A DNA stretch of 64,000 nucleotides. Source: Escherichia coli. Its GTDB lineage: Bacteria; Pseudomonadota; Gammaproteobacteria; Enterobacterales; Enterobacteriaceae. Under the pieces are notes generated by a model. The model had not been told where the DNA came from. It did no database searches and worked only from the letters and a program-made list of their open reading frames with translations. The position numbers and the translations under genes were made by a program. Each line of letters starts with the position of its first letter. Position 1 is the first letter of the stretch. The DNA lies in NCBI RefSeq assembly GCF_024502345.1, contig NZ_JALDNN010000001.1, one strand, 5' to 3'. Below, piece after piece: positions 17,173 to 18,727 of this stretch.

Positions 17173-18318
17173 ATGAAAATCGTAATCGCCCCAGACTCTT
17201 ATAAAGAAAGTTTATCTGCCAGCGAGGTTGCGCAGGCGATAGAAAAAGGATTTCGGGAAATTTTTCCTGATGCACAGTACGTTTCTATTCCGGTTGCCGA
17301 CGGTGGCGAAGGAACGGTGGAAGCGATGATTGCAGCCACCCAGGGTTCTGAACGTCACGCCTGGGTTACAGGGCCGCTGGGCGAGAAAGTGAATGCCAGT
17401 TGGGGGATCTCCGGCGATGGCAAAACCGCGTTTATTGAAATGGCGGCTGCCAGTGGGCTGGAGCTGGTACCTGCGGAAAAACGCGATCCACTCGTGACCA
17501 CTTCACGCGGCACAGGCGAGTTAATCCTGCAGGCGCTGGAGAGCGGCGCGACAAACATTATTATCGGCATTGGCGGTAGCGCTACAAATGATGGCGGCGC
17601 AGGCATGGTACAGGCGCTGGGGGCGAAATTATGCGACGCCAACGGCAATGAAATTGGTTTTGGCGGCGGTAGTCTTAATACTCTGAATGATATTGATATT
17701 TCCGGCCTCGATCCGCGCTTAAAAGATTGCGTCATTCGCGTCGCTTGTGATGTCACCAATCCGCTGGTGGGCGATAACGGCGCATCGCGCATCTTTGGCC
17801 CACAAAAGGGAGCCAGTGAAGCGATGATTGTTGAGCTGGACAATAACCTCTCTCACTATGCCGATGTCATTAAAAAAGCGCTGCATGTTGATGTGAAAGA
17901 TGTCCCCGGCGCAGGAGCTGCGGGCGGTATGGGTGCGGCGCTAATGGCGTTTCTTGGTGCGGAACTGAAAAGTGGTATTGAAATCGTCACTACGGCGCTG
18001 AATCTGGAGGAACATATTCACGATTGTACGCTGGTGATCACCGGTGAAGGGCGTATTGACAGCCAGAGTATACACGGCAAGGTTCCGATTGGCGTCGCAA
18101 ACGTGGCGAAAAAGTACCATAAACCGGTGATTGGCATTGCGGGTAGCCTGACCAATGATGTTGGCGTTGTACATCAGCATGGCATTGATGCGGTCTTCAG
18201 CGTATTGACCAGTATTGGTACGTTGGACGAAGCATTCCGCGGGGCTTATGACAATATTTACCGTGCTTCACGTAATATCGCCGCGACACTGGCGATTGGA
18301 ATGCGCAACGCGGGGTGA
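17173..18318 (+). CDS. garK: Glycerate 2-kinase
   Basis: ORF track frame 17092..18318; start MKIVIAPDSYK gives 381 aa. Confidence 0.9.
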   Translation: MKIVIAPDSYKESLSASEVAQAIEKGFREIFPDAQYVSIPVADGGEGTVEAMIAATQGSERHAWVTGPLGEKVNASWGISGDGKTAFIEMAAASGLELVPAEKRDPLVTTSRGTGELILQALESGATNIIIGIGGSATNDGGAGMVQALGAKLCDANGNEIGFGGGSLNTLNDIDISGLDPRLKDCVIRVACDVTNPLVGDNGASRIFGPQKGASEAMIVELDNNLSHYADVIKKALHVDVKDVPGAGAAGGMGAALMAFLGAELKSGIEIVTTALNLEEHIHDCTLVITGEGRIDSQSIHGKVPIGVANVAKKYHKPVIGIAGSLTNDVGVVHQHGIDAVFSVLTSIGTLDEAFRGAYDNIYRASRNIAATLAIGMRNAG

Positions 18319-18350
18319 CAAGGGCGCGCAAACCCTCTATACTGCGCGCC
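18314..18350 (+). promoter_or_regulatory. rnpB sigma70 promoter (-35 gtgaca, 17-bp spacer, -10 tatact)
   Basis: Hexamers seen at about 18315-18320 and 18338-18343, 7 nt before the M1 RNA 5' end; overlaps the garK stop codon. Confidence 0.6.

Positions 18351-18727
<377 letters not shown>

Follow-up and report, generated by a model that had tools for sequence, protein, structure and literature searches.

Judging by their titles, four papers have been devoted to the promoter of rnpB, the gene for the RNase P RNA (M1 RNA) of Escherichia coli (Motamedi 1984; Jung and Lee 1997; Park 2002; Ko 2008). The 1984 paper has the words 'tandem promoters preceding' the gene in its title, and both Jung and Lee (1997) and Park et al. 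(2002) announce a link between the promoter and the stringent response, the latter with -35 mutations as a further subject. Four Fis sites upstream of rnpB are given in the literature, but a ChIP-chip study could not confirm them. In a published CRISPRi study, garPLRK-rnpB is handled as a single unit that contains an internal promoter, rnpBp. The rnpB promoter, its start site and its place within the garPLRK-rnpB unit are therefore not new, being already in the literature and in databases. Stable-RNA promoters under stringent and growth-rate control are recognized by a -35 hexamer that is close to consensus but imperfect, combined with a discriminator rich in G+C. That rnpB is under both kinds of control through its discriminator and imperfect -35 is taken here from the literature.

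We analyzed the corresponding site in a stretch of E. coli DNA of 64,000 nucleotides (the window, from whose first letter all positions are counted). Its genes and promoter elements are as follows.

14036-17076, + strand: garP, garL and garR, co-oriented upstream genes (ORFs; the same block is annotated in MG1655)
17173-18318, + strand: garK, glycerate 2-kinase, last gene of garPLRK (ORF end at 18318; E. coli genome annotation)
18315-18320, + strand: -35 hexamer GTGACA, 5/6 against TTGACA (direct reading and consensus scan)
18316-18318, + strand: garK stop codon TGA, positions 2-4 of the -35 hexamer
18321-18337, + strand: spacer AGGGCGCGCAAACCCTC, 17 nt (explicit slice)
18338-18343, + strand: -10 hexamer TATACT, 5/6 against TATAAT, with A2 and T6 present
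18344-18350, + strand: G+C-rich discriminator GCGCGCC, 7 nt (explicit slice)
18351, + strand: transcription start and mature M1 RNA 5′ end, a G (Rfam model position 1; published start sites; invariant G)
18351-18727, + strand: rnpB, RNase P RNA (M1 RNA), type A (RF00010, 318.6 bits, E 2.6e-104)

Read directly, positions 18291-18365 are ggcgattggaatgcgcaacgcggg GTGACA agggcgcgcaaaccctc TATACT gcgcgcc Gaagctgaccagaca. The stretch 18315-18351 is almost certainly the proximal sigma-70 promoter P-1 of rnpB, the classical E. coli promoter called rnpBp. The original prediction had placed a GTGACA and a TATACT, 17 bp apart, about 7 nt before the M1 RNA 5′ end, with the -35 hexamer overlapping the garK stop codon; explicit slicing and the Rfam match returned the same coordinates and the same overlap. 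Its description of the promoter as embedded in the last codons of garK was overstated. The overlap is real but the core promoter shares only 4 nt with garK, namely the stop codon and the base before it, which ends the final Gly codon, and the spacer, the -10 hexamer and the G+C-rich stretch all lie inside the 32-nt garK-rnpB intergenic gap. The predicted promoter is thus real and was correctly interpreted; it is the textbook rnpB promoter, and this interpretation is already known.

Both genes flanking the promoter were identified from end to end. The Rfam model of bacterial class A RNase P RNA was matched over its full length (1-367) with 318.6 bits against a threshold of 100. Because the RNA 5′ end at 18351 is set by Rfam, it is defined independently of the promoter. 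GarK, with 381 aa, matched the NCBIfam glycerate 2-kinase equivalog at 1-381/381 with 844.8 bits. The mechanically called garK ORF is longer at its 5′ end than the annotated 381-aa frame by 27 codons (17092-17172), and the family model supports the annotated start. We also considered whether the GarK C-terminus is a chimera reading on into the promoter, and rejected this on the end-to-end match to the glycerate 2-kinase model. The GarK proteins of Siccibacter and Cedecea sulfonylureivorans, which share the GMxxxG tail, counter it as well; their garK stops lie 9 and 44 nt, respectively, upstream of the aligned -35 hexamer.

The 1.2 kb around the site matched 5425 of 5426 complete E. coli genomes, where it is annotated as garK, rnpB and yhaC in that order, and the 60-mer 18306-18365 was identical in 5027 of the 5425. 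The best E. coli match over the 1.2 kb was 99.5%, and the window comes from a non-K-12 strain. In MG1655, the minus-strand gene rnpB occupies 3270216-3270592, and the end of garK at 3270625 again leaves a gap of 32 nt. One of the approximately 5430 E. coli matches to the garK-rnpB junction sits on a plasmid-typed record.

With 10 of 12 positions agreeing with the sigma-70 consensus, the two rnpB hexamers formed the best promoter-like site that a consensus scan found in 13000-19500. Both are near consensus, and their 17-bp spacer falls within the 17 ± 1 bp required of a sigma-70 promoter. A start purine is expected 6-8 nt after the -10 hexamer, and G18351 lies 7 nt past it. Between -10 and +1, GCGCGCC provides the G+C-rich discriminator of a stringently controlled stable-RNA promoter.

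Hexamers of this kind could also be a chance match, in which case M1 RNA would be cut from longer transcripts started at gar or inside garK. Such a match is made easier by the fact that sites with at least 9/12 were as common in 13000-19500 as in shuffled sequence (10 observed and 7.8 expected, no excess), and the wording of the 1984 title, 'tandem promoters preceding' the gene, also leans toward upstream starts. Sites with at least 10/12 were rare, however. The two strands of the 64-kb window together held 10 of them, or approximately 7.8e-5 per position, so that a site of this quality whose -10 ends 5-9 nt ahead of an independently defined RNA 5′ end has a chance expectation of approximately 4e-4. 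Two published start-site maps argue further against a chance match. Table S4 of Kim et al. 2012 (PLoS Genet) gives an rnpB start at 3268614 (minus strand, 1690 reads, 5′UTR of 0), in coordinates of an older genome version in which rnpB is 3268238-3268614, and the 51 nt of upstream sequence printed there are identical to window 18301-18351. Yan et al. 2018 (SMRT-Cappable-seq) report a full-length primary transcript 3270592-3270215 for b3123. Tied to the window through the MG1655 annotation, both starts fall exactly on the base equivalent to G18351 and not elsewhere, as the original prediction of the promoter demands. In the available part of the Cappable-seq data of Ettwiller 2016, the coordinate gave no hit. 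Taken with the conservation and genetic evidence below, these data leave the chance-match explanation effectively refuted already, with hardly any probability remaining.

To see which bases of the promoter are conserved, representative GTDB genomes were scanned with a conserved 47-nt rnpB pattern, which gave at least 120 loci, 60 of those listed being from Enterobacterales. We aligned positions -60 to +15 of the 58 listed Enterobacterales loci with enough upstream sequence and of the window (59 sequences in total). The TGAC of the -35 hexamer was at least 90% conserved, and the hexamer read GTGACA in 43 sequences, ATGACA in 9 and TTGACC in 4. In the -10 hexamer, T1, A2 and T6 were invariant, the variants being TATACT (31), TATTAT (10), TATCAT (8) and TATAAT (5). 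The spacer was 17 nt long in 59/59 although the sequence of its 5′ half varied, the discriminator was G+C-rich and 7-8 nt long in 59/59, and the +1 G was invariant. No conservation was seen upstream of approximately -38 in the 59 sequences. Retention of the hexamers against varying flanks and a varying 5′ half of the spacer is what would be expected of a working sigma-70 promoter, and the comparison shows which rnpB promoter bases are under constraint.

This hexamer-specific conservation was found next to five kinds of upstream neighbor, which again speaks against a chance match. The neighbors in the 59 sequences, and the positions of their stop codons, are as follows.

rsmI, 29/59: TGA in the -35 hexamer in 9, stop in the spacer in 12, stop within 21 nt upstream in 8
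garK, 21/59 including the window: TGA inside the -35 hexamer in 19/21
garR, 3/59: stop 18-26 nt upstream of the hexamer start
agaR, 3/59: stop 26 nt upstream of the hexamer start
other genes, 3/59: stop position variable

The nine rsmI genes that use the TGA in the -35 hexamer belong to Pantoea, Erwinia, Mixta and Tatumella, and the 12 with a stop in the spacer end 8 or 14 nt on from the start of the hexamer. Over their full length the rsmI products share 79-86% identity with E. coli RsmI (the 16S rRNA C1402 2′-O-methyltransferase). Among the garK sequences, those of Cedecea sulfonylureivorans and Siccibacter colletis do not have their stop in the hexamer. Upstream of rnpB, garR is the adjoining gene in Shimwellia, Lelliottia and Enterobacter MGH24, and agaR in Cedecea neteri, Pluralibacter and Enterobacter Ag1; their stops lie 26 nt before the -35 start in 5/6 and 18 nt before it in Shimwellia. 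Because these garR and agaR neighbors differ, the island content beside rnpB differs between genera.

Among the 120 loci listed, rsmI was upstream of rnpB and co-oriented with it in 75, of which 45 were outside Enterobacterales, and in 16 non-Enterobacterales loci whose rnpB 5′ end was fixed by Rfam the rsmI stop lay 34-78 nt before that end. In the loci listed, the rnpB core promoter thus adjoins or overlaps the 3′ end of a co-oriented gene throughout Enterobacterales, and does so more loosely in other Gammaproteobacteria. In MG1655, rsmI (3292475-3293335) is on the same strand as rnpB but approximately 22 kb apart, with yraHIJK (fimbrial), the aga cluster, prlF-yhaV, garD and garPLRK in between. 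The E. coli rsmI ends with cagcagGGGTAACAG, followed by its own terminator hairpin. We found no relevant prior description of an rsmI-rnpB linkage in the literature; a Blochmannia indel paper contains both names.

The original prediction also stated that no terminator is visible between garK and rnpB, and two scans agreed with it. Neither a consensus scan nor our own hairpin-plus-T-run scan found an intrinsic terminator on the + strand in 17951-18351. Across 13000-19500 the consensus scan listed no terminator on the + strand; since the genuine rnpB terminator escaped it as well, its empty result alone is no proof of absence. Our guess is that stem extension through A/T pairs uses up the T-run at 18737-18766. 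Our own scan recovered both rnpB terminators, which served as positive controls. The hairpins at issue are the following.

18323-18330 and 18343-18350, + strand: inverted repeat GGCGCGCA / TGCGCGCC, 8 bp, pairing spacer with discriminator (centroid hairpin)
18737-18766, + strand: rnpB intrinsic terminator AAAAACCCGC-TTCG-GCGGGTTTTT with a T-rich tail (sequence; own scan)
approximately 18855-18890: second copy of the rnpB terminator (own scan)

Within the gar coding sequences, our scan found loose structures only. The most compact terminator-like site in the gar operon was a hairpin (approximately -11 kcal/mol) followed by T7 at 15079-15113 (+), inside garP. Downstream of rnpB, direct repeats span 18678-18922, where the last approximately 50 nt of rnpB and the terminator are found again 113 nt farther on, with 77% identity over 60 nt; the 22-mer AGATGAATGACTGTCCACGACA is exact at 18678 and 18779 and 73% identical at 18901. 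These match repeats that were reported on the 3′ side of rnpB in the 1980s. Farther on, two more 10/12 promoter-like sites lie toward the yhaC end of the region, at 20136-20164 (+) and 19641-19613 (-), one of which again reads GTGACA-17-AATAAT.

The inverted repeat within the promoter raises the question of whether its hairpin, formed in gar read-through RNA, insulates rnpB as a terminator, a pause or a signal for processing the M1 RNA 5′ end. The 8-bp G+C-rich stem is the centroid structure, and in E. albertii a double change at 18327 and 18346 (GGCGTGC / GCACGCC) keeps the pairing. The hairpin 18323-18350 has no U-tract, however, and its z score against shuffles was -0.12, and we rejected it as a terminator or processing signal. 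Nor was it conserved: in 58 distinct Enterobacterales sequences 56.3% of cells were paired compared with 53.8% after shuffling, slid registers looked similar, and the repeat was absent in Citrobacter and Pseudescherichia. An insulating role is therefore very improbable, and we judged the inverted repeat incidental.

Because no intrinsic terminator follows garK, a garPLRK transcript at the garK end is expected to enter rnpB. Gar transcripts that reach 18318 would, as inferred from the sequence, cross the promoter and then rnpB and stop at the rnpB terminators. The absence of an intrinsic terminator still leaves room for Rho-dependent termination or rapid RNase cleavage of gar transcripts.

Independence of rnpB from this upstream transcription is indicated by published genetic data. 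In the CRISPRi study, guides against garK, garR, garL and garP caused no fitness defect, whereas those against rnpBp or rnpB did. The same study contrasts this unit with rpoZ-spoT-trmH-recG, where knockdown of the upstream rpoZ produced a polar fitness defect. If M1 RNA were cut from transcripts started at gar, blocks in the gar genes should not be harmless, and this result too opposes a chance match of the hexamers.

Further evidence came from E. coli VG48B2 (NZ_CP128584.1), in which a 1.35-kb IS421 lies between garK and rnpB (locus L123, 1657-3010). Its target site in the window is the following.

18314-18323, + strand: IS421 target site GGTGACAAGG, a 10-bp duplication in VG48B2 (junction reading)

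The junctions read cgcggGGTGACAAGG followed by cataagcgc at one end and gcgcttatg followed by GGTGACAAGGgcgcgcaaaccctctatact at the other. The element is inserted exactly at the rnpB -35 hexamer, and the duplication gives garK and rnpB one hexamer copy each, so that the garK stop is kept and the rnpB -35, spacer and -10 are intact. Native sequence is retained from approximately -37 only, and everything further upstream is displaced. Since VG48B2 is viable, rnpB is expressed there without garK-coding upstream DNA and without direct gar read-through, a further point against processing of M1 RNA from upstream transcripts. The CRISPRi data and VG48B2 together show that the core promoter suffices for viability, although an outward IS421 promoter could contribute in VG48B2. 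Nothing upstream of approximately -38 thus appears to be needed for viability, which bears on the reported Fis sites that ChIP-chip failed to confirm. P-1 may be an internal promoter of garPLRK-rnpB: the upstream genes are co-oriented, no intrinsic terminator intervenes, and its independence follows from the published CRISPRi data and the IS421 strain.

We propose that RNA polymerase would recognize GTGACA and TATACT over the 17-bp spacer, open the DNA over GCGCGCC and start at G18351. Because the start base is already the mature M1 RNA 5′ end, the transcript requires no trimming there. M1 RNA, which is essential, is supplied by P-1 itself and not by read-through. Under gar induction, read-through could transiently occlude P-1 and give 5′-extended RNAs.

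Gar transcripts may also enter rnpB and yet be functionally uncoupled from it, being removed by Rho or RNase E without feeding M1 RNA and without appreciably blocking P-1. Ko and co-workers are said to have found that upstream-initiated rnpB RNAs are removed by RNase E and not matured. Such uncoupling is a serious possibility, though we would put it somewhat below even. It fits the absence of a fitness effect when gar transcription is blocked by CRISPRi, and the title of Ko et al. points the same way. In the part of the SMRT-Cappable-seq tables available to us (Yan et al. 2018), no gar-containing transcript is listed and rnpB appears as a monocistronic transcript only, in line with uncoupling; gar was probably uninduced in those cultures, and its absence from the list says little about read-through. 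On the other side, no feature of the sequence indicates uncoupling. A literature search for P-1 together with RNase E found nothing. Uncoupling complements our main explanation and does not exclude the reading of this site as P-1.

The simplest reading of the neighbor comparison is that rsmI was the ancestral co-oriented upstream neighbor of rnpB. Catabolic islands would then have been inserted directly upstream of the -35 hexamer, and later deletions would have trimmed the junction up to the essential promoter. TGA is present in every TTGACA-like hexamer and would be available as an overlapping stop; garK appears to have come to use the same -35 TGA that serves rsmI of Pantoea and Erwinia as a stop. 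Immediately before the -35 hexamer there may be a recurrent boundary of insertions and deletions, with approximately 22 kb in E. coli, garK, garR or agaR elsewhere, and IS421 in one strain. The Cedecea sequence ggcTGACcgggcgTGACa looks like an intermediate of such trimming, and it is speculation that GGGTAACA at the end of E. coli rsmI is a relic of an ancestral GGGTGACA. The junction is too tight to hold a terminator, and transcription from upstream must therefore have entered rnpB at all times. That the tight fusion of gene end and promoter was selected, either by coupling RNase P RNA output to upstream transcription or with the promoter acting as a hard stop for deletions, seems to us rather unlikely; alternatively, the tight junction is a neutral by-product of compaction. 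The stop-in-promoter pattern of rsmI and garK and the insertion point at the -35 hexamer apparently form a small, previously undescribed evolutionary footnote. For E. coli little is added by these results, and the comparative result is mildly useful in that it identifies rsmI-rnpB as the ancestral arrangement.

Compared with the described systems, the site is closest to P-1 (rnpBp) of E. coli K-12. The 51 nt at 18301-18351 are identical, the garK-rnpB order and the 32-nt gap are the same, and no difference was found within the promoter, although the window strain is not K-12. The rrn P1 and tRNA promoters resemble it in their G+C-rich stretch between -10 and +1, their imperfect -35 hexamer and their stable RNA product. 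Unlike them, rnpB has no A+T-rich UP-element-like stretch, its -40 to -60 region consisting of G+C-rich, unconserved garK codons. The rrn P1 spacer is 16 bp long, compared with 17 bp at rnpB. The third comparison is with internal promoters that guard an essential downstream gene from polarity, for which rnpBp in garPLRK-rnpB is the CRISPRi study's own example. It differs from other such promoters in that it drives a non-coding RNA, and because this RNA begins at the very base where transcription starts, transcripts initiated upstream would need extra 5′ processing to be useful.
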